A DNA stretch of 60,608 nt, filler included, from Sluysia triapertura (lineage: Eukaryota): assembly GCA_046118255.1 (NCBI GenBank). It is 5 parts of 5 records of this genome, joined end to end, with 100 filler letters (N's around TTAATTAATTAA, not from the genome) between each part and the next. Parts side by side here need not be neighbours in the genome. Positions count along the whole stretch, not along the records: positions 25,789 to 37,043 come from JBJNIA010186713.1; 4 more parts are not named here. One strand, 5' to 3'. The notes beneath the pieces are model-generated. The model saw only the letters and a program-made list of their open reading frames with translations. It was not told the DNA's origin and ran no database searches. The translations under genes were made by a program, and so were the position numbers. This document shows positions 1,646-60,538 of this stretch, in pieces. The first letter of the stretch is position 1. Each line of letters begins with the position of its first letter.

Positions 1646-3200
1646 CAGTGGTCTTTACACTTTTTGTGCTGCAACCAACTTTTCCAGTCCAATTTTTTTC
1701 GCGATCCCTGAGGACTGAAATAAGAATATTAGAGTAAATTTTTGTAATAAAAAAATTTTTAACACCAAACAATTAAAATATATTTAGTAAGAACATCCAA
1801 TCTTGGTTCTACTTCGGTCTCAGTATTAATTCCACATCTTTAAAATTCGATCGATATTTTGTCTTAATATAAGTCAGTGTCGAAAATGATTTTTCACGCA
1901 AATAAGTAAAGGCAAAAGGAAGAATAGAAAGTGTAACAGTGGATAGTCTGTTTTTACACTATCCCAAAAGGAGCTTAAGTTTTTTCTGAAAAATTTACTT
2001 TCAAGTTCAAATCACTGAAAAATTCTGAAAACTCTTCTTGAGCTTTGAGTGAGAGATGATTCACTTTTTCTATTCCAATATCAAATAGTTTATAAACCGA
2101 CAAGAATTGGTTAGCATCTAATTCTGGCATAAGATACTTTTGAAAAGGCCTGTCAAGTGGTCGATTACCAGTGGCTTCATTACATAAAAATCTACCTAAT
2201 TTTCTTGGATGAAATCTTCCATACATGTAAACACTTCATATGAGGAAATCTCAAATTTTTCTATCCATATACTTATTTCTTTCACGAATGCTTCAACTTT
2301 TGAAATCCATTTGAAAATATTCGAGATTTCTCCTTGTAAAGACCAATTTAAATCATTCAATTTTTCAAAAATAACAAAGAATCCACCAATTCCGAATTAC
2401 TTTCGAACAGAAATTGCATTACCTCATTCTTTAATAAAATCAGTCTTTTTAAAGTTTTGCCTCTTGATAACCATTTTACTTCCGCATGGAGTAAAAGAGA
2501 TCTAAACTCTGAATCCATTTCTTTATATAAGTTGGCAAAAAGACGGATATTAAGGACACTACCTTTAATAAAAGTTATAATTTTCGTGGAATTTTGCAAA
2601 ACTTCACATAATTCCGAAGAAATATTTTGCCGCCAATGCTGCAGTGTGGCAAAGTAATATGTCTAACGTGAAAGCCAACATTTTTTCCTATCATTTTCAC
2701 TGCTCCGTCAGCACAAACCCCAACGCAATCTTCCCACTTTAACCCAACTTCTTCGGGAAATTAATTCACTTTAAGAAAAATTGTTTCACTTGTTGTGAAG
2801 CCCTCTAATCATTATTAAAGCAGTATCTGACTTATTCTAATAAATGCGCTTTACCTGAAAAATCAGTAAGTTCGAATCGCCTATTTTGAACTACCTTTTA
2901 TTCTAAAAAATTTAACTTTTCAAATTGATCTTTGCTAATATCTCCAAGTCATCTACTAAATGCTGAATCCGAAAAAGGAATTTTTTCAATTCATCTGAAA
3001 ATTTGTGGCCATGAATAATTTCGGTCATTTTAACCGCTAATTGTAAATGGCATTTTTCTCTTTGCAATTAAGTAGGACACCTCACCAGTGCTTGTACATG
3101 TTTAGGGTTTTTCTGTAACTGTTTTTCCATTAATCACTGTTGATATCGCAAAAGACGATGTATTCTAAATTGATAAGCTTGTAATAAGTGATAATTTTGA
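1646..3200 (-). mobile_element. Decayed hAT DNA transposon, Buster/ZBED8/SCAND3-like transposase pseudogene, one terminus visible
   Basis: Minus-strand fragments RLFANLYKEMDSEFRSLLLHAEVKWLSRGKTLKRL and LPFAFTYLREKSFSTLTYIKTKYRS are typical Buster-family motifs. Terminus CAGTGGTC at 1646 is preceded by ATTTATAC, fitting the nnnTAnnn Buster target consensus. Many frameshifts; right boundary approximate. Confidence 0.85.
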
Positions 3201-14721: not shown

Positions 14722-14821
14722 NNNNNNNNNNNNNNNNNNNNNNNNNNNNNNNNNNNNNNNNNNNNTTAATTAATTAANNNNNNNNNNNNNNNNNNNNNNN
14801 NNNNNNNNNNNNNNNNNNNNN
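14722..14821. other. Assembly gap with artificial TTAATTAATTAA linker
   Basis: N-run with a central all-frame-stop linker; the same structure occurs at 25689, 37044 and 48882. Confidence 0.97.
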
Positions 14822-25688: not shown

Positions 25689-25788
25689 NNNNNNNNNNNN
25701 NNNNNNNNNNNNNNNNNNNNNNNNNNNNNNNNTTAATTAATTAANNNNNNNNNNNNNNNNNNNNNNNNNNNNNNNNNNNNNNNNNNNN
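25689..25788. other. Assembly gap with TTAATTAATTAA linker
   Basis: Read directly from the sequence. Confidence 0.97.
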
Positions 25789-27556
25789 ACGTCAAGTTAA
25801 TCATGGTAGGAATGAAGTAATTTCCGACGTAATAGGCCATCTTTTAAAGTTCGATCGAAATAGTTGTAAAAGGACTTATACCAAGTTCTTATGTGAAAGA
25901 AAACTTATTAAATTAGCTTTAAAATTAAAATTAGATGATAATTCCAAACGCCCCAAACTCACTAAAACCCCATATTGTTATAAGGAGTACATAAAAACTC
26001 CAAAAATAGGTCTTCACAGGTTACTACCCAATATATTGAAGCTTTAATTGGTGTTGAGGAAGTAGTACAAAACTTATTGAAGCAACAGTTAATAGATAGA
26101 CTAACTAATTTCTCATCTTTTCGTTTAGCTCCCACTATTATAGCGTTGGTTTTAGCTTGAATAGTTATTAGTATATTATTGTAAAATAATTTCTTAACTT
26201 ATTTATGGTTACTTCGGAAGTGTCTATGTTTCTTATTAAACAAATGCATAATAATACTGATAATATTTGGAATCCACTATAATGTGTAGGCAGTTCTAAT
26301 TCTGTATTGCGTTCGTATATTGGTGATGGCATTATTGGTGATAATGGTAGTCCTGGAGGAGTAGCATAAAATCTATTATTTCTTGGAATTGAATAATGAT
26401 TATCGACATCGTTATTAGAATCAGTATTAGTATACTTACGTTTATTCATAAGAAACATCATAATCATTAGTAAGGTTATTATTAATGCAATAATAAATAA
26501 TGCAGCTGCGATTACTAAAATAATTATTGACGGATCCTTTTTTAAAGTATCTATAATCGTATTTGGTCCTTTGATTCCCTGTATAGCGAAATTTTAGCTT
26601 GATGTTGGATGAATATTATTATGTCTATCTTCTGAAAGTAAATAGTCCTTGCATGTTGCTACTAGTTACTCTATGTTTGGTAGAACATGTCTATGTAATT
26701 CCCATAACTAAAATTAAGTCTTGCGGGTTTGATGCATATGTACTGTGCTTTAATATTTATAGTTACCTTAATTTGAACTTCTGTGTCGAAATTATAAAAA
26801 TCCAAATATTTCGATTTGTAAATTCTTTGTGATGCGTCCGTAATTGTTATTAATGTTAGTTAGGTAAGTAACATCATATTTGATATCCTATTATTAACTC
26901 TTGTTATCTTATTGCAAGTAATTACATAGTAAATGGTAAATATCATATAAATTAAGGTAAAAGTTAAGAGTGCAACTATAAAAATGTTCCTTATTTATGT
27001 CCTTACTTATTTTCTTACTTAATTCGGTAGTAGAATTCATGACTCTATTAGGTGATATTGAACTTACTGTTTTATTTATATCCTTATTCTTAAAAATATC
27101 CATGAAATCTATTGTTACTGACTTATTATATAGTGTAAACGCCATTATTGTGGTATATCGAATTGAATGTTTGCATTTAAAAATATCATTTATTATTAGA
27201 GGTTTCTCTATTATCAATGGCTCAAAATATATGCAATATATATCAAAATTATAATCAGGAATTTCGTTTCTGTTATCAATTTCAGCAGTCCAAAATTTAT
27301 TAAAAGTATTAGTTAGAAAAATGTTCTGTTTGGTATTAGTGTAACTTGTTAAATTCGCTGGATATACCATAGTTGTTAATTGAAATAGAATTAGCATAAA
27401 AGTTATCGCATAAAGATATGTATTATTTGAAATTGTTCTTGTAAACATTATACTACTATTACTATTATCAGTAGTATTATTATCATTATTATTATTATCT
27501 GATCCGATACCTGAAGTTGAAGATACCGTGGTATCCCACCAATCAAGATTTCCCAA
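25789..27556 (-). pseudogene. Env-like membrane glycoprotein polyprotein (frameshifted)
   Basis: Signal-like YLYAITFMLILFQLTTMVYPA; Cys- and NxS/T-containing ectodomain; TM IIILVIAAALFIIALIITLLMIMMFLM followed by NKRK; Tyr/Pro-rich tail; second signal-like FQILSVLLCICLIRNIDT; Cys-containing continuation (INCCFNKFC). Confidence 0.6.
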
Positions 27557-27559
27557 TTT

Positions 27560-27891
27560 GGTGTTGGTGATGGCGGTAAAACCGGATTTAATGGAGAAAT
27601 TTGATAATATTGTGGTTGTACTGGTGGTATTGCTCTTGGCATCGGAGGTAAAACCATTTGAGGCAGTACTACATGCGTGCCTAGTGGTATTTTAAGAAAT
27701 CTTAATCTTCCGTGTATTACTGTATTTTCTAATTTACTTAGCGCATCCATACCTAATATGATATCATATTGGCATATTTCCCAAGCTAATATTGTTATAA
27801 ATAGATCCACATCTAAGATTGTTAGTTGACATTGTAGTAGTCCATTAAATAGAATGTGTGAGCCATCTACTGCAAATAATCGTATTCCTGC
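27560..27891 (-). pseudogene. C-half of retropepsin-like protease plus Pro-rich linker
   Basis: Same frame after a single TAA: AGIRLFAVDGSHILFNG...YDIILGMDALSKL, then LPPMPRAIPPVQPQYYQISPLNPVLPPSPTP. Confidence 0.75.
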
Positions 27892-28576
27892 TTACTGTAA
27901 CATGTTAACTTCCAAAGCATATAAAACGTTATAATTAATTATAGTATTATTTGAACCTGTGTCTATAACTAATCGTGCCCATCTCTGATTGAACTTAATA
28001 CTCTGAACCAAATGGTTTTGTATGTTAAAAGAAGAAGTTATCATATTTATTGTACTTATTGGTTTATCCTTTGTTATATCTGTATCTGTTAATTTTGACG
28101 GTGTACTTAATGACTTTGATGGTTTATCTCTATCTTTAATTCTTGGTCTAACTTTTAATACACTTTTGGTAACTTTTCTATCTCTTAAATTATATTCATC
28201 ATTAGGTGCCAATTTACATCGATTTACATGCACAACGAAAGTTTCCGCATTCATATCATTAGGTTTCTTTATATATAAATTAGTAGAAGTTGTTTTCATC
28301 ACTTCATAAGGTCCTTTAAATGGTTTATGTAATTTTGGAGAATATCCTGGTTTCGCTATTGGATAATCTACTAATACTTTATCTCCTATTTTAAAGTTAT
28401 GTTCATTTGCTTTTTTATCATAGTTATCTTTATAAGTTTCTTGGGTATAACGTATTTGCAGACCGGCGCGTTTCCATGCATCTTGTAAATTCTCTCTCAT
28501 AATAGTTACATATTCTGGGGTTTCCATATATTGTGATGAAGGTGGAACCCAATCTAAATCTACTGGCAGTTTTGCA
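27892..28576 (-). pseudogene. Gypsy integrase C-terminal (GPY/F) region fused to the N-half of a retropepsin-like domain
   Basis: ORF 27892-28527 extends upstream to about 28576. DTGS at 27952-27963. Confidence 0.85.
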
Positions 28577-30695
28577 GTATTCAGTTATTTTAATTAGTCA
28601 ATTATCCTTTTACAATAAATCAGCACCAGCGTTTTAAATCCACTCAGTGTATTAGCAATCCAATTACAAGTCGTTTCGGAAGCTTTTGATCAAATTTTCA
28701 TGAAAAAGTAAATTATTTTATTTTAAGGAGATTTTGACTTTTTATAATCCAAGATCATAAAATACACTTAAAATAAAATTTAAATATCATTATTCTATGG
28801 ATCGAGATATACTGAGGGAAAATTTTCTACTCAAATTAATTAGAAAACAAATCAAAGATCCCAAAATGGATCTAAATATTTTTGTTCTCTTTTACTTTCT
28901 GTTATCTTTGTATATAATATCGTAAATTTTGTTGATGTTAGTTAATAAAATTAAAATAGTTAATATTGTTAAGTTTATGACCCTCCAAACGTGTTAACAC
29001 ATTATAATAAAACTCTTAGTTCATAAGTTACAGAGACGCCAATTATACGTTGCAGGACGTTTACTGTAACCGGACCCTGCTCTGTTTTTATATTGCCGTA
29101 GGTTTATTTTTAATAATAATAATAATTATTATTATAATGATTATAATAATGATAATAAATAAATGGTTTATTTTAAAAAGGAAACATAAAAATTGCTTTT
29201 AGACTACAAAGAAAGCTCACTTTTTTCTTTAAGTTGATTTATTTAATCTAAATTTAAAATAGTTTCCTTTTTTGTAATTAATGTAATTTTTAGAAAAATT
29301 ATTATTATTTATGTGAAAATTTAATTCTTAAAACTTCATAAAACATCGAAATGTGTTGGCAAATTAAAATGAAGCTTACAACTAATTTATAATTGTGTAA
29401 TAAGTGTGATTAATTTATGAAATACTGATGTACCTATTTTAATTATTTGGTTCAATGTTACTTCTGACTGTGAATTGATCGAATTGAATATTGGAATAAT
29501 TTAAATGAAAAAATTATTTAATTCGATAATAGATATGCTTTATAAACTAATTTTGATAAAATTTACTTTGAATAATGCAAAAAATGAAGTATATGTGAGG
29601 AATTTTATAGAAAATACTAAGTAATGCATTAAGAAAACATCATCCAATTCTACAAAAAGTAAATCAAAGGTAAATTTCTGACATTTTATAATCTACTTAG
29701 AAGCTATTCATAATTCTCTTACAATCTTAAATATATATTACGGACCGTGTTTTACATCATCAATTTTGATATGATACTGATCACATTGATAACAACAATC
29801 ATTTATTGCATTGAACAAGTTTACAAAACTGAACATTTCGAGTTTCACGACTAAGACACAGAAGTAAAAGTGAAAATGTTACATAAAAATGTCCGACTTA
29901 GATTTATTTGCTTGAAACCAGTTAGACTCAATATTAGTATGTGTTTAATTTGTTAAATCTGTTTGATATATGCTTCGATGTTTTAGCAATGAAAAACGCC
30001 CTTAACAATTATTATGCTCGTTTCAAATAAATGCCGACATTCATGTTTACCACATACTCCACCTCCAATTAATCAATTAGTTTGAGTAAATTATTCTCCA
30101 TTAATCCATTAATATATGATTAATTACAAATGACTAACATGCGATTCACGCTACTAGTTTATGTTAGTTTGACATGTATCTCTGATATATAAGCAACATC
30201 AATAATCACTTATTACCTGAAAACATTCGATCTAAAATAACTACAGAAGTTAACTAAGTTAACACGACCAATCTGACAATGCTGAAATGAGTCTTATGCT
30301 ATCAAAAACTTTTTCTATTGGATTGTATTATGTAACGATCTTTTCGAATACTAATTATTTCGCATTACTTTAACCATAGAATTAGTTCTGGTTCAGAATC
30401 ATATAATTGAAAAGAAACCACTTGTGTTCCATGAATTTTCCAAAGCTATTGAACTCCCAATGATAACTTATTGACATACTTTGAATATAATACCATAATC
30501 ATTGCTTATAATTTGTATGACTGTCTTCATTATAGACTGATGACTCCAATTCGATTATTCGATTATTTTTTTAAGCTGATAACAAAGTCATACTTGTCCA
30601 AATATGAATTTTTCACGAAAATGAAGTATATGATATTCAGGATTTCTCGCCAAATAATCGGACATATGATTTAAGTATAAGCTTCTTTTATTTTT

Positions 30696-37043: not shown

Positions 37044-37143
37044 NNNNNNNNNNNNNNNNNNNNNNNNNNNNNNNNNNNNNNNNNNNNTTAATTAATTAAN
37101 NNNNNNNNNNNNNNNNNNNNNNNNNNNNNNNNNNNNNNNNNNN
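37044..37143. other. Assembly gap with TTAATTAATTAA linker
   Basis: Read directly from the sequence. Confidence 0.97.
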
Positions 37144-44974: not shown

Positions 44975-46515
44975 TTATAGAAAAATTAAATATATACTAC
45001 AAAAATCATTGTCTAAAGACAAAATTTGAGCGCCCTCAATATTTCTTATATCAAAATATAATATTAAAAACCCTAAAAGCCTGCCCATAATGAGCGAAGC
45101 ATTTATTAATATTCGGATTATTTTGTAGAAAATATTACCAAATTTTCTTCCTAATTCAAGAAAGATGACTTGTTGTAAATGCATATGGTCCGAATACTTC
45201 TTAATCAGAATCATTTTCGCGATCATTATTTCGTTGACTAAATCATCCTTATCTAGTTCTTTGTCTGCCCTTAGTTCTACGATATCTGCCTCAGCTAAAT
45301 CATCAAAACTTTCTCTTCCCATTGTTTGCGCTAACTTCGTTATCAGAAAATATTCATTAAATTAGTATTAAATCAGTAATTCTCATTTCAAATTACTTTT
45401 GGCCAAACATTTTTCCAGTAGACATTGAGTGCTGATTGCTTAATTTCTTTATGTGACACTCCAATGTGCTTAACACAATTTAAGAATGTCATTTTTTCCA
45501 AGCATCCATAATCGAAAGAGATCCATCATTTTCCATTTGTTCTAAAGCATACCTAAAGGTTCGCTTGATGTAAAGGACTTCAAAAGTCGAATTATCCCTT
45601 TATCTAACGGTTGCAATAAAAGTCATACTTTTGGGCAAAATGCAACTTGTATTTGTTATAAATCGTGATGATGGCCTAGTGCATTATCAATAAAAAAACA
45701 TGTGAAAAACCTATGAAATCATTCATTGAAAAGTGTGGCAATAACCCAGATTTTCTCATTGGCCATCCAATAAACTGGAAGATTGTTGATGTTTATTAAT
45801 TTAAATAAGCATAGCGTTTTGATGCGTTAATAACCATTGGTTTCATTATATCATTATCTGAAATATTGCTTCTAAAGAATTATTATGCGATTTTGTGACC
45901 TTTAGCAAAATAGGTTCTCCCTGACATTTTACCGAAATAACACGAACTTGTCAACACTATAGAAATAATCTTAATCGACAGATGATTGTTCACCTTTGCA
46001 ATCTTTTATTATGTAAAGAATGTCTGAATTTTTTGAACCAAACATGACTTGCAAAAAAGACAGCTTCTTTTTCATTAAAGTAGATGGTAACTGATTCTAA
46101 ATCTTATCATAAATCTTCAAAATCTTATTTGTATCAATTAGAATCCACTTTTTTGAGTTGTGTCTTCTAGCAACATCATTAATGTCGTTTCCATTGCGAC
46201 ATTTCTTACTTGAAGCTGTATTCATACTAGTTCAAGATCCAGCTGCTACACTTTTCCTACGGAATCTTCTTTTTTTATTGTTTTTATTGTGGCCACTTTC
46301 TGTTACTCTTCCTCCATTATATATACAAATCTAAAAATTTAATTTTGCACTCTTAAGAATGACTTCTCTTTTCATTTGATTCTTTTTAATTTCTTTTCTT
46401 TTAATTTAATTACAAAAATTATAATTGTTTATCCCAAAATGGTAAATGTGAAGTTCTAAAAAGTCTAAAAGCGAAATCGTGTAAATAAAGTACAATGTAA
46501 ATCAAGGATAGATGT
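44975..46515 (-). mobile_element. Decayed Tigger1-like (pogo/CENP-B family) transposon
   Basis: Minus-strand PVYWMANEKIWVIATLFNE*F, FFIDNALGH, STFEVLYIKRTF and SIMDAWKK match DDE_1 domain motifs. TIR-like CATCTATCCTTGATTTAC with TA at ~46515. Left boundary approximate. Confidence 0.8.
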
Positions 46516-48881: not shown

Positions 48882-48981
48882 NNNNNNNNNNNNNNNNNNN
48901 NNNNNNNNNNNNNNNNNNNNNNNNNTTAATTAATTAANNNNNNNNNNNNNNNNNNNNNNNNNNNNNNNNNNNNNNNNNNNN
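48882..48981. other. Assembly gap with TTAATTAATTAA linker
   Basis: Read directly from the sequence. Confidence 0.97.
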
Positions 48982-49825: not shown

Positions 49826-50835
49826 AAATCCATGCGCATCATTAATATTTTAATCGTGTATGTATGTATATCATGTATGTAATGTATTTAGGAAAAGTTA
49901 TGTAGTTAACTAAAAAATAAATTAAAGTTACTGACAATGTCATTAAACGGTCGGTGCTCTTGGATTTTAGTCAACTTAATTCAGTAAATAAGTAGGGCTT
50001 TACTTTGCATATTAATTGGTAGATTAAATTGCAAATTTTGAAATATCATACTTTATAAAGTACATCACTAAAACTAGCAGTACATTGCAATAGTAATAAT
50101 TTATATACATTATTACATCATTATATTGTTTGAAGTACTTGTTTATACATTTTCTTAATCCTTCACATAATAGAAATAAACATTTATGACATTAATAAAC
50201 AAATAATATATTTATTTATAATTAAATTATGTATTTTATATGATACTATAAACTGCTAATTATTAGTATTATGTTTAACATCAAATAAAAATTTTATATT
50301 GATTTTATTTATTATATAAAACAAAATTTTAAAGTAAATTATTAAAGTAAATAACAAATTTCTTAATTTATATTGATATCGTTAAAAAATTAGAGAAATC
50401 AAAAAATGCCTTTAGTTTTGACAACTGTGTCATTAATTAACCACAGAAAACCCGAATGCAATTAAGGGCACCGCTACAATATACATAAACTATCGGTAAA
50501 TGAAGTTACTTAATAACTTTAATGTAAATTTAGATTTAAATTTGAAACACACATTGCTGATTTCTTCAATTATATAGAATATACAATACAATTTAGTATT
50601 ATTAACCAATTAAAAATCAGAAAATTATTGACTATTGCATATATATAAAACTGTGACATACATGGAAGCAAATTACTAACAAACTACATTTACATAGATG
50701 AAACTTATCCAAACATTATTTATTACCATTAAGTAGTAAATGCACAATTTACATTTGTAATATAATCATATTTTTGTTTTCGATTGTGGATTTTAAAATT
50801 TATATAAATTCACTAAATTGTCAATTTTATTTATT

Positions 50836-51202
50836 ATGGGTCAGTTTACTATTCAAACTACATTTTACATTATACTATTGACAATCAATAATTTTAAATT
50901 AATTTTCTGCAACGATAGTAATATTGAAGAAAATGATATATTCGTATCAAATCAAGCTCAATTATATCTTCATGATGAATCCGGTAGTTATTTTGGATAT
51001 TCTATATCGTGCTTTATTGGCCAAAATAAACCATTTTGTTTAGTAGGAGCACCGAAAGGCTTAGTTAATGATTTTAATACAGATACAATGATACGAACTG
51101 GTTCAGTTTATCGATTATCTTTCGAAGAAAATATTTGCACTAATGTACCAATTACATCAAATGAATTTTCTGAAACAGAAACAAATGAAAAAAATTTTAA
51201 AA
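50836..51202 (+). CDS. Integrin alpha subunit, first coding exon (signal peptide plus first FG-GAP repeat)
   Basis: MGQFTIQTTFYIILLTINNFKLIFC signal-like segment; GSYFGYSI...LVGAPK...TGSVYR...C is the integrin alpha beta-propeller blade-1 signature. Donor A|gtacgt at 51202/51203. Confidence 0.88.
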
Positions 51203-53966
51203 GTACGTTTATTATTTTAGGAACATAAATAAAATACTTTGTGTCATGCTTAGTTGAATAAGAGGATTTAACCAATCATAGAATAATAAAAATATTTGAA
51301 TAATTTGTAAACTTACATAATTTTATTTTTGTATATGAATTGTTAAGTATTAAAAGGAAGTTTTTTGTTTTAATAAACAATTTTTAGATATCGAAATAAT
51401 AATTTGGACTAATAAAAGTAACACTTACCTCACTAACATGCTTTATTGATTTATTTTAATTCTGCATACAGTTTATGTGTCTGATATATACTTGGAACAA
51501 GAGTAAATACGTGAGCATACAAACTTTATCCGGTTGTGGAATTTGTTTATGAAAATCTCTCATTAATTCTCAAAGTTTTCATGAATTCAAAGTTAAAATT
51601 ATTGAAGTGTGTTGAAAAAATTACTAAACGACAAATAATTTAAATGTTTGATATATTGGCGCATGACAAATACTATAATTTTATAGTTTCATCGATAAGT
51701 TATGAGTAGATAATCGAACGTTTCATTTATGTTAATTAAGTGGTTTGTGATATACTTTGAGAGCAGCTTATTTAAATATTAATAGTGCAGATACGGTCGC
51801 AACAATATGTTACAACATCGAATTATTATTTGTCATTATAGATTGTTAAACTATCAGACACAAAATAACGTAGAGTGTGAATAATATTTTCCCATATTAC
51901 TAAATTTGCATGTAATTAAATGTAATTGGTTCACACAATATTTTTACATCATTAAAAATATTGTATTTTGTGCAAAAAAAGCAACTTGATTTATGACAAA
52001 TGATTTGTAAAATTAATTTATATAATTTTATTTAAAAATCATCTTTTACTATCGTTTTAATGAATTTCATTAAATAATTTTTGGATTTATAAATTTATAA
52101 CTGATTTATTTATTATTTTATTATAAGTGTTATAATTATATTTAATTTATTGTATAACTTTGTTGGGATTGTAATGACAATCTTTTAGCTTTAAAAGTGT
52201 TGGGTAACTTTTATTTCACATAAATTCTTTAAATAATATCGATTTATGAGCAGTTTTTTATCGTGAAGTTTAATAATTAATTTGTTTTTGATAATAGAAA
52301 TCTAAGTGCAAATTTTACTAGTTAATTTAGATTGAAATTCCTAAGTTTCTGTGCTCGGAAATGTAGTAAACTGATAATACAAATATAAATAAATACACTG
52401 GAAGCAAAATGGAGGCACCTATAATAGCTTAGATTTTTCTTATATATTTTATTTTTGATTTTTTAAATGAATTTAGTTATAGTACTTAATACAAATAAAC
52501 AAAATGTTTTTTGATAAAATTAATGTTTAATTCACAATTATCTAATGTACAGAAATAGCAATTCAGTTTACAATTATCCAACTACATAAAAATAGTAATA
52601 CAATTCACAAATAATTATATATGTCGAAATAGATGTATTGAATAATTTTGTTTTTTGATGTAGAGGAAACACTGCTTTATAGTGTTTATTTATGTTATAC
52701 TATGACATTCTATATTAACTTTTCTACAATTAATTCCTTCTTACATTTAAATTCTATTGTGTGAGTAATATCTTTCTATTGTAATTAAATTAATATAATC
52801 AATAGTAATATAATAATAATATTTTCAATCAATTATGGGCATACTTTGTTATTTCGAATAAAAATCATAGCTATTTGGAAGGTACATTATAATGTAATCG
52901 TCGAACCCTATTAGGATTACAAGAAATAAATCTGTATTTATTATTGCTTTTAAATAGCGAATACTTATAATTATAATATTTATAAATAATTATAATATTT
53001 ATCTTTACGAAGAATCTATTAAAAATTATTGAAAAAACACAAAATATATAAGCGTATGTATCACCGACTTTTAGTCAATTTATCATTTTGATTCTGATTA
53101 TTCAAGTTTTTAATAGAAACCAATATGAGTATATTAATAACAATTTTGATTTTAAATGAACATAAATACATCAATTTCTAAAATATAAAATACATAATTT
53201 TGATAATCATTAAACAATATAAATGATGTATTGTAAATGATTACATTGTTGTGATATAATATTACAAATTTAATCTATGTATTAATTAATTTTCTTTTGT
53301 AATATTGGTTTGATCATATTATAATTCATTTGTACATCTATATACATTTATTTAGTGGTTGTGTTCGTTTGCATCAATCTGAGTTTGTTAGTATTCATTT
53401 CTCTTTTTCATAAAATCATGTGATTTTTCGTCATTCATAACTTTTTACACTTGATAATTAAGTTTGATGAGTTATTACATTGTGTTTCGTTAACGTTTGT
53501 TTAATTCTTGATTTCAAATCATTGAATCATGTTTATTTTAAAGCTACTTGGATATCTTTTTAAAATTAGTAATATATTTTATTTTATTTTATAATTTATA
53601 TGAAATAATTTTTCACAAATTCAGACACAAGTAAAAACATAAAAAATAATATTTGGAATATTAAAGCAACGAACACATTATTTTTCACAATTACAATGAT
53701 CAAAATCAAATTTATTATTTAAAAAGTGTGTTTAGAAATAACTCATGAATTACTAATCACAAAGAGAATTTACTGCGACAATTTATATTCTACAATAATT
53801 TTAAATTGCCTAAAACTTGAAATGATTAGAACTATTAATTAATTATTGACAGAAGAATTTTATAAGACATTTACAACTAGATTCTATTTTTACAATATTT
53901 GTGAAAATTAATCCATTCAAAAGTAGTTTTATATTTATTAATTTATATTTATATTTAAATGTCATT

Positions 53967-59008: not shown

Positions 59009-59188
59009 TTATACGTTATAAAATAAAGTAAACAAACTATCATCTGGGTTAGTTTTACAAAGTGATAAAGATGCTGTAATCTTTTGCATTGTTTTTTGGC
59101 TTTCCTGATGCATTGTTAACCATTCGTTAAAAATGGACTGAAAATTTTCCAAGTTTTCATCTGTCGATGATAACTGAGGGCATTTTAT
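59009..59188 (-). CDS. bHLH transcription factor, exon 2 (IKCPQLSSTDENLENFQSIFNEWLTMHQ...FYNV*)
   Basis: Acceptor aatag|ATA at 59189/59188, in frame after a 32-nt intron, open to TAA at 59009-59011. A further downstream splice cannot be excluded. Confidence 0.7.
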   Translation of the reverse strand: MKCPQLSSTDENLENFQSIFNEWLTMHQESQKTMQKITASLSLCKTNPDDSLFTLFYNV

Positions 59189-59220
59189 CTATTAAAATAA
59201 TTCAATATAAAGCAAAATAC

Positions 59221-59748
59221 TTGGCTTAATTTAAGTAATAATTTAATAACTTTTGCTGCATAATCAGCTTCTCTTAACAAATGCTGATTAAATGCATCAA
59301 CTACTTTCAAGCTAGATACATACTCCACAGAGTTCTTAAGAATCAAACCTTTGTTCATTTTAAGATCATTGTTCATAAAATACTCTTGTGGTAACAATTG
59401 AGAAAGTTTCTCAATTTGAGCATTAATAAAATCGCGTCTTTTTCTTTCTACTCTATTATGAGTTTCCTTTTTGCTTTTCGATTTTTCCCAAGTTATACAC
59501 GTCTCATTCGGTAATGAATTAGAATATGAACATCCCTCATCAAAAGATGTATCCTTTAAAGGTAAAGAAACATGTGCATCATCATTAAGGTAATCAACAT
59601 TCATAGATTCAGTAACATTATGACTATGAGAACGACGTCTTTTCAATGGTGTTCCATTCATAGCTTCCATTTTAACGAAATGTATTTTTTTTTCATGTTC
59701 TGAAGTATTTATTTTGATTAAAACATCTTTTATATTATTATTTGACAT
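59221..59748 (-). CDS. Group-B bHLH(-zip) transcription factor, MiT/TFE- or USF-like, exon 1
   Basis: KKETHNRVERKRRDFINAQIEKLSQLLP...DLKMNKGLILKNSVEYVSSL has the H-E-R basic-region signature of CACGTG binders and a MiT-like NKGxILKxSVxY helix 2. Donor CAA|gtattt at 59221/59220. Confidence 0.9.
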
Positions 59749-60538
59749 TATAACAATCCATGAATGTATAAGTCATTTTATATATCCAAATAACATAAAA
59801 CTATTGATATATAAATCAGAGAAAAATTTCTTCATATACTAAAAACCTTAAAATCCAAGCCAATTACATTTATAATATTGAATTATTTTGGACAAAATAT
59901 ATAGTTCAATATACACAATCATTATATTAATAATAAAAAGAAACTAAATTTTTTAAATGTTTTGTTAATAAGTTTTAAGCTTTTCTTTTATCTATATTTA
60001 ATATATATTATAAAATAATGTCTAATTTTTCGATCAAATAATCATTTTAAATCGAATGAACTTTTAAATATTTAATTTTTGAAATAATTTTATTTAATTT
60101 TTGAGTTATAAATTAATTCTTAGGTTTTATAATTTTTTACTTATTAAGTAAATTACATTTCTTGAATAGCTGTTGTTTTAATAAATATTTTATTAAAAGT
60201 ACATAATACTCTTATTCCTAAAATTATAATTATAACCATTTTTGAGTATCCAAAAAGAATTATGTAACGCCACGTAACATGAAAAATGAATAATATGTCG
60301 TTGGACATAGAATATTAATATTCTAAAATAGTAATTAAATGAATGTAAATACTTATTTACAAAACGTATTTTACTAAAGTTATACAAGTAATGTTTCAGA
60401 TTGTATTTGCTGAAGTATAATTCAATATTTAAAAGTATTTGTGATAGAACTCTAAAATTTTCAGGTTACATGGCATGACTAACATCTTAATCATTTTTAT
60501 ATATAAGTACATCATTGTAATAAAGTGGTCAACTTTAA

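Follow-up and report, generated by a model that had tools for sequence, protein, structure and literature searches.

A retropepsin domain behind the integrase in a Ty3/gypsy lineage of single-ORF Gag-Env-Pol elements, seen in a broken copy from Sluysia triapertura

On the minus strand of a 60,608-nucleotide stretch of Sluysia triapertura DNA (hereafter the window, i.e. the whole stretch that was analysed), the tail of a gypsy integrase runs in frame into a downstream retropepsin, and this odd order is real. The best explanation for the region is that a high-copy Ty3/gypsy element of the single-ORF Gag-Env-Pol type has left its broken 3' part here, and comparison with related proteins indicates that a protease behind the integrase is a trait of the lineage, not the outcome of chance nesting. 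As the initial annotation had proposed, such a second protease does follow the integrase within one long polyprotein, and five of 26 relatives (P0012, P0160, P0161, P0165 and L002) encode it together with a normal, canonical pre-RT protease in the same ORF.

The window is AT-rich (GC 19-30% per 2 kb) and contains identical artificial spacers, i.e. runs of N around TTAATTAATTAA, at 14722-14821, 25689-25788, 37044-37143 and 48882-48981; as these join contigs, sequence on either side of a spacer may be arranged differently in the genome. Apart from the element, it holds a piece of a host bHLH gene (59185-59772, minus strand; Pfam HLH, E 3.5e-11; one relative at 46%) and three ORF pieces without a Pfam match, which resemble an integrin-alpha N-terminus (50797-51228, plus strand), a hAT/Buster transposase fragment (2357-2662, minus strand) and a Tigger-like tail (44975-45361, minus strand). 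The features of the element, listed in its reading direction, are the following.

28569..28610, strand not assigned: approximate 5' break of the window copy (depth drop; loose ends in runs X2 and X3)
28183..28584, minus: C-terminal portion of the integrase of a Ty3/gypsy element, with GPY/F motif and the lineage end motif HVNRC ... YNLR (Pfam, identity to relatives, trees)
28306-28314, minus: GPY (translation)
28216-28230, minus: HVNRC (translation)
28051..28182, minus: basic Ser/Thr-rich linker (translation; 89 residues separate the integrase end from the catalytic Asp, compared with 53-80 in relatives)
28039..28050, minus: INMI motif ahead of the protease, a candidate self-cleavage site (motif comparison)
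27721..28011, minus: post-integrase retropepsin domain (Pfam RVP_2 and structural model)
27952-27972, minus: LVIDTGS (translation)
27952-27963, minus: catalytic DTG(S) (translation)
27892-27894, minus: in-frame TAA within the protease (translation)
27859-27879, minus: LFAVDGS (translation)
27739-27765, minus: DIILGMDAL (translation)
27553..27666, minus: proline-rich spacer, the reading frame breaking near its end at about 27550 (translation)
27362..27415, minus: hydrophobic stretch resembling a signal peptide, behind a run rich in Asn/Asp (hydropathy scan; position matches relatives)
26594..27361, minus: broken ectodomain-like region, open to 26912 with stops thereafter (translation)
26447..26527, minus: transmembrane-like anchor, then KRK (translation, hydropathy scan)
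26171..26446, minus: Pro/Tyr-containing stretch resembling a cytoplasmic tail (translation)
25790..26170, strand not assigned: the repeat runs on to the assembly gap at 25789 (summed contig depth 2,400-8,100 in run X1)

The minus strand of the window, a point that the initial annotation left unstated, is the coding strand of the whole integrase-protease feature. The frame 28584-27451 contains one stop in 378 codons; the two remaining frames have 53 and 35. The initial annotation's integrase tail passing in frame into a complete retropepsin-like domain is thus borne out, and its single interrupting TAA lies where it was placed. The LVIDTGS motif is likewise present; the coordinates given for it, 27952-27963, cover DTGS alone. 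The integrase tail carries the GPY/F C-terminal module that serves as a criterion of Ty3/gypsy (Metaviridae) and is 39-52% identical to the integrase tails of the relatives. Pfam Integrase_p58_C matches residues 91-124 of the window frame below its cut-off (E 7e-4), SH3_Tf2-1 matches weakly, and a word-based homologue search among longer proteins yielded no more than three gypsy Pols of ordinary type, which matched the integrase tail. Pfam RVP_2 matches residues 192-288 at 24.5 bits (cut-off 20.3), and the marks of a retropepsin (clan AA, family A2) are present, i.e. D[ST]G, a flap, and the closing hydrophobic-Gly-x-Asp strand-helix. An AlphaFold model of the domain, for which the stop was written as X and nine relatives supplied the alignment, reached a pLDDT of 80, and the top Foldseek matches in the PDB were Ddi1 and HIV-1 protease (E 2e-5, TM 0.66); a single-lobe retropepsin fold is accordingly what the model predicts. 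A PDB sequence search with the window protein gave no match. The profile of the RT-RH-integrase core matches nothing anywhere in the window, and the upstream pol is therefore missing, as had been stated.

The initial annotation had itself raised the prospect that the junction is a nested gag-PR fragment, or that relatives lack the post-integrase protease. Nesting or recombination of such a fragment from another element, or an assembly artefact, we hold to be very improbable. Translation of the linker 28051..28182 revealed neither Gag nor a zinc knuckle, and the layout recurs in uninterrupted relatives. Against this, the window protease leans towards the canonical proteases (see below), and false orders do occur. 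Two were encountered here and set aside: P0053, the only one of 249 other proteins (many of them fragments) with a post-integrase protease, has a second Gag match and a protease that groups with its own canonical kind, which gives it the look of tandem or nested elements, while the apparent integrase-Gag-protease order of L052 is false, the contig being permuted with a 443-nt terminal repeat.

Multiplicity was checked by comparing the window with contigs of three public runs (X1, X2 and X3) at 80% likeness. In run X1, which may itself be the source of the window, the summed contig depth, which is a sign of many copies and not a copy number, lay at about 40,000-100,000 in the protease and at 300,000 in the integrase tail, compared with 36-109 in the flank beyond 29174. 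The protease region is multicopy like its neighbors in all three runs, which shows that the element is a large, diverged repeat family, protease included. Furthermore, one contig of run X3 covers 27744-28227, from the integrase end to the protease, with 73 differences and 21 gap letters; the junction is consequently present in a copy diverged by 15%, which argues against an artefact. At 28610 the depth falls from about 90,000 to 2,900, and contigs of X2 and X3 have loose ends at 28568, where other copies proceed upstream unlike the window; the window copy is hence 5'-truncated. With its internal stop, frame breaks and truncation, this copy is dead. No recognisable LTR or downstream ORF was found in 25790..26170, nor any tblastn match there to the downstream ORFs of relatives.

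Relatives were collected from a HMMER search (2017 matches at E 0.001, the best 150 of 2017 used) and a region search (311 matches, the best 120 of 311 used, 15 of them at 248 bits or more and the next at 178), which together gave 18 clade proteins among the matches listed, and from a metagenome scan that kept 80 loci and gave 14 clade loci. L009 and L010 were dropped as duplicates of proteins in the set, L002 extends and replaces P0010, and L011, L012 and L030 were too short, leaving 26 non-redundant members. Scans of genome contigs and viral contigs found no relative. P0015, a retroelement polyprotein of eukaryotic type, is labelled as a Flavobacteriaceae hypothetical protein, probably through contamination of a metagenome bin. 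On integrase, the 26 relatives and the window form one clade against gypsy outgroups (100/100), and an earlier integrase tree also placed the window inside it (100/99). One tree made the window integrase sister to a protease-bearing subclade (87/90); with more loci this grouping was no longer recovered, two protease-less loci being nearest by path.

An intact D[ST]G protease lies behind the integrase in 10 of the 26 relatives and none in 16, while six have at least two proteases before RT; up to three active-looking protease domains occur per ORF in the lineage. The canonical Pol order PR-RT-RH-IN is present. Assembled as a composite, the polyprotein of the relatives begins with Gag, signal, gB-type Env, TM, an optional extra protease with C2H2 fingers, and the protease, and goes on with RT, RNase H, integrase, optional extra protease(s) and ankyrin repeats, signal, one to three FN3-like domains, TM and tail. 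P0165 is complete, with Gag-Env-PR-RT-RH-IN-PR-signal-small ectodomain-TM in one ORF of 2871 aa. Gag, absent from the window, is identified by Retrotrans_gag in P0165 and by zf-CCHC in P0164 and L005. A search for LTR pairs in L002, L005, L008, L009 and other clade loci found none; their contigs end near the ORFs. Mapped on the integrase tree, presence and absence of the post-integrase protease require five changes, which could stem from recurrent loss, from movement or from independent gain.

One or two ORFs, most of them weakly interrelated, follow the polyprotein in L001 (6861-9920), L002 (7268-10371), L005 (12085-13470), L007 (3712-5556), L008 (10617-12104) and L010 (5011-6525), and Pfam RNase_T (DEDD nuclease) matches in all of these loci except L010. 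A RING-finger ORF is found downstream of the polyprotein in L003 (2684-4135) and L013 (2055-3389).

The region downstream of the protease had been called Env-like. A signal-like and a TM-like stretch are there, but the region has no similarity to the fusion Env of the lineage or to any Pfam envelope family, and a profile of seven clade Envs matched nothing in the window and nothing behind the integrase in the clade proteins; a classical GAG-POL-ENV layout, with the fusion glycoprotein downstream of integrase, is thus contradicted. Where a fusion glycoprotein was identified (Pfam PF24664, Monjiviricetes fusion glycoprotein; nine of 26 relatives), it was in every case upstream of RT, between Gag and Pol. 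Behind the integrase, 21 of 26 relatives have a signal-like and a TM-like stretch (P0023 is left out of this count, as both of its calls fall on the same segment), and the extra protease is missing from 14 of the 21. Consequently, the protease, missing also from 16 of all 26 behind the integrase, is dispensable. The suggestion that the second protease frees Env from a Gag-Pol-Env polyprotein fares poorly for the same reasons and seems scarcely credible to us: the true fusion Env lies elsewhere in 9/9, and the downstream protein has its own signal, is mostly found without the protease and has an FN3-fold ectodomain in the relative that was modelled. It does, even so, come after the protease as a signal-ectodomain-TM protein and could be a second virion surface protein.

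This FN3 assignment comes from P0163, the single relative modelled, in which the post-integrase membrane protein is predicted to be FN3-fold: a two-repeat model (pLDDT 89) resembled tandem fibronectin type III domains with a best E of 4e-7, at TM-scores of only 0.3-0.5. A profile of the repeats matched behind the integrase in 15 of 26 relatives, a count that is partly circular because 11 of those matched were used to build it, and left six of the 21 with the layout unmatched. Weak PDB sequence matches to the repeats (E 0.026-1.5) were FN3-bearing in 16 of 17 cases, judged by protein names, Pfam fn3 matched one of ten repeat-bearing rows (E 0.054), and the ESM Atlas yielded no usable match for the P0159 ectodomain. 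In P0165, P0166 and P0023, a small Cys-rich ectodomain of no assigned family takes the place of the FN3 repeats at the C-terminus. An extra signal-FN3-TM cassette occurs ahead of the canonical protease in L008 (ORF residues 1209-1770, between Env and Pol) and in P0163 (residues 48-225); the membrane module is therefore duplicated and mobile. A different gypsy element, P0186, carries a chromodomain and a rhabdovirus-type glycoprotein domain behind the integrase in one ORF.

For the window, the FN3 nature of the ectodomain is suggested by position only, given that the region did not match significantly with the FN3 profile of the relatives, the Env profile, Pfam or the ESM Atlas; the FN3 repeat profile scores at best -0.2 bits on the broken region, a value reached by 27 of 60 shuffles. 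It has four Cys and four sequons in 150 aa. Two candidates were rejected here, namely a match of a three-protein ectodomain profile (3.0 bits, at the TM stretch only), which reflects composition and not homology, and a hydrophobic run closing the protease frame, which probably represents an Asn-rich stretch in another frame and no real TM.

Turning to the extra proteases themselves, each of the 19 accessory domains of the relatives is found in one of two places: between the integrase and the second signal, or ahead of the canonical protease, there behind the Env anchor where Env is on record. A starred branch (95/89) separates them as one clade from the canonical proteases, the split reaching 99/97 in a 17-row set, and 15 of 15 scored best on an accessory profile, although near-duplicates inflate some of the scores. 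The DTG-[SC]-PI subtype is found before Pol in L005 and L008 and behind the integrase in P0160 and P0165; its occurrence in both places indicates that accessory proteases move. L008 has the order protease-protease-signal-FN3-TM between Env and Pol. Taken together, these protein comparisons are best explained if the extra proteases constitute a separate, old paralogue group able to sit on either side of Pol.

Whether the window protease belongs to this group is less clear. A motif of the form [IVL]xM[IVLM] is found ahead of 11 of the 19 accessory proteases and none of the 13 canonical ones, and ahead of the window protease as well, against a background of 68 in 1642 windows, the pattern having been picked after the sequences were seen. 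The flap motif is common to the window protease, 12 of 19 accessory and three of 13 canonical domains. The window protease scores 59.7 bits on the accessory, 65.3 on the canonical and 56.3 on the outgroup profile, and its place in trees varies: next to an outgroup row, on a long branch; on the stem that joins the groups; or beside a canonical protease; grouping with the accessory clade was not rejected by an AU test (p 0.38). It thus cannot be placed with confidence, does not seem clearly accessory, and may be an independent duplication.

Directly after the post-integrase protease of P0010/L002, P0158 and L001 comes a protease-like domain that is degenerate and lacks D[ST]G, possibly a tethered pseudo-dimer or a regulator; ankyrin repeats follow it. 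Such degenerate copies, the patchy distribution and variable position of the extra proteases, and the possibility that the window copy stems from a canonical protease are what might be expected if these domains were tolerated, weakly selected by-products of module duplication and template switching. We nevertheless judge this distinctly unlikely, as the accessory group is a clade, its catalytic motif is kept among elements with integrases 53-92% identical, and dN/dS is about 0.27 in one pair, L001 and L002 (dN 0.30, dS 1.09, by simple counting and with dS near saturation).

In the same pair the extra protease is 56% identical, versus 93% for RT-RH. Fast evolution combined with a retained catalytic motif could also befit a released effector that cuts host defence or cell-death proteins, like the ankyrin, RING and DEDD nuclease cargo of the lineage. 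The extra protease sits among ankyrin and zinc-finger cargo, several diverged paralogues occur within one element (P0158, L008), and apoptosis regulators are carried by Burro, according to the excerpted text of PMC6431247. Such a role is unlikely in our estimation, there being no known host substrate and the fold being that of an ordinary retropepsin, the usual substrate of which is its own polyprotein.

Reasoning from topology, we find it somewhat probable that the extra proteases act on the cytosolic side of a polyprotein tethered to the membrane, where they would detach Pol and the accessory domains. Both Env and the protein at the terminus would have their own signal and anchor, so that host signal peptidase could release the two membrane proteins, and Pol would form a cytosolic loop fixed to the membrane at one end by the Env anchor and at the other by the second signal. 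The accessory proteases would sit in this loop near the anchors, beside C2H2 fingers or ankyrin repeats, dimerise at the membrane and cut cytosolic junctions, thereby freeing the integrase from the signal stub and releasing the cargo domains, alongside or before the maturation cuts of the canonical protease. Domain order, folds and conservation of the catalytic motif are what this analysis shows; the catalytic activity and homodimer of the extra protease are putative, and the window copy has a stop inside the domain. A further-reaching version, which we regard as doubtful, likens the product to the multi-pass membrane polyproteins of RNA viruses, with the accessory retropepsin acting early at the membrane, the canonical one maturing the particle, and two surface proteins, one a gB-type fusogen and the other an attachment protein with FN3 fold. 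If true, this would be a two-component entry system, something not yet described in LTR retrotransposons.

Among systems already known, Ginger1 DNA transposons have a gypsy-like integrase with a cysteine protease (OTU/Ulp1) fused behind it and no RT, whereas the lineage described here has a retropepsin behind the integrase in RT-bearing elements. The nematode endogenous retroviruses described by Sacco et al. in 2022 are reportedly gag-env-pro-pol, with a continuous ORF, Env before the protease and no second protease. GAG-ENV-POL errantiviruses with an HSV/gB-type Env occur in Platyhelminthes, Bryozoa and Nematoda (Chary and Hayashi, PMC13524379), and these, especially Smed_errantivirus_1-6, resemble our relatives in their gypsy Pol and gB-type Env between Gag and Pol. 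The published Schmidtea Env rows resemble the Env of the relatives by eye, and of four short motifs taken from the Schmidtea Env, two to four were found in each of seven clade Envs tested and none in two outgroup Envs. From these two comparisons, the clade probably overlaps the published group. In the main text of PMC13524379, 'protease' occurs once, in a legend, and 'fibronectin' is absent. Burro/GYPSM1, a giant planarian gypsy element, has one huge ORF with a single PR-dUTPase-RT-RH-IN and BIR, BCL2 and MATH cargo, as given in the excerpted review (PMC6431247); it resembles the relatives in its huge ORF, in an Env that lies in frame between Gag and Pol, and in carrying ankyrin repeats along with further cargo, and the same excerpt makes no mention of a post-integrase protease or FN3 membrane protein. 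BIR, BCL2 and MATH cargo were not found in the relatives by Pfam. The LTR elements of bdelloid rotifers have a DEDDy exonuclease as ORF3 and a canonical PR-RT-RH-IN in separate ORFs, and thus share a DEDD-type nuclease ORF with L001, L002, L005, L007 and L008; no extra protease is described in the excerpted text (PMC5408684). The excerpts of PMC12440569, PMC8532177 and PMC13465017 contain nothing on proteases. The element class is therefore known, i.e. the single-ORF Gag-Env-Pol gypsy elements represented by Burro and the planarian errantiviruses, while the accessory protease clade and the FN3 membrane protein are apparently undescribed in the literature searched, in which we found no description of a second, extra or duplicated protease or of FN3 in such elements.

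It is assumed that an LTR retrotransposon requires a single protease, located before RT; the lineage described here keeps a second, separately evolving group. For annotation, this means that a TM protein behind the integrase need not be Env. More broadly, the findings are relevant to the processing of a membrane-tethered Pol in single-ORF Gag-Env-Pol elements, and to the question whether attachment and fusion became the tasks of separate proteins in the evolution of invertebrate retroelements.
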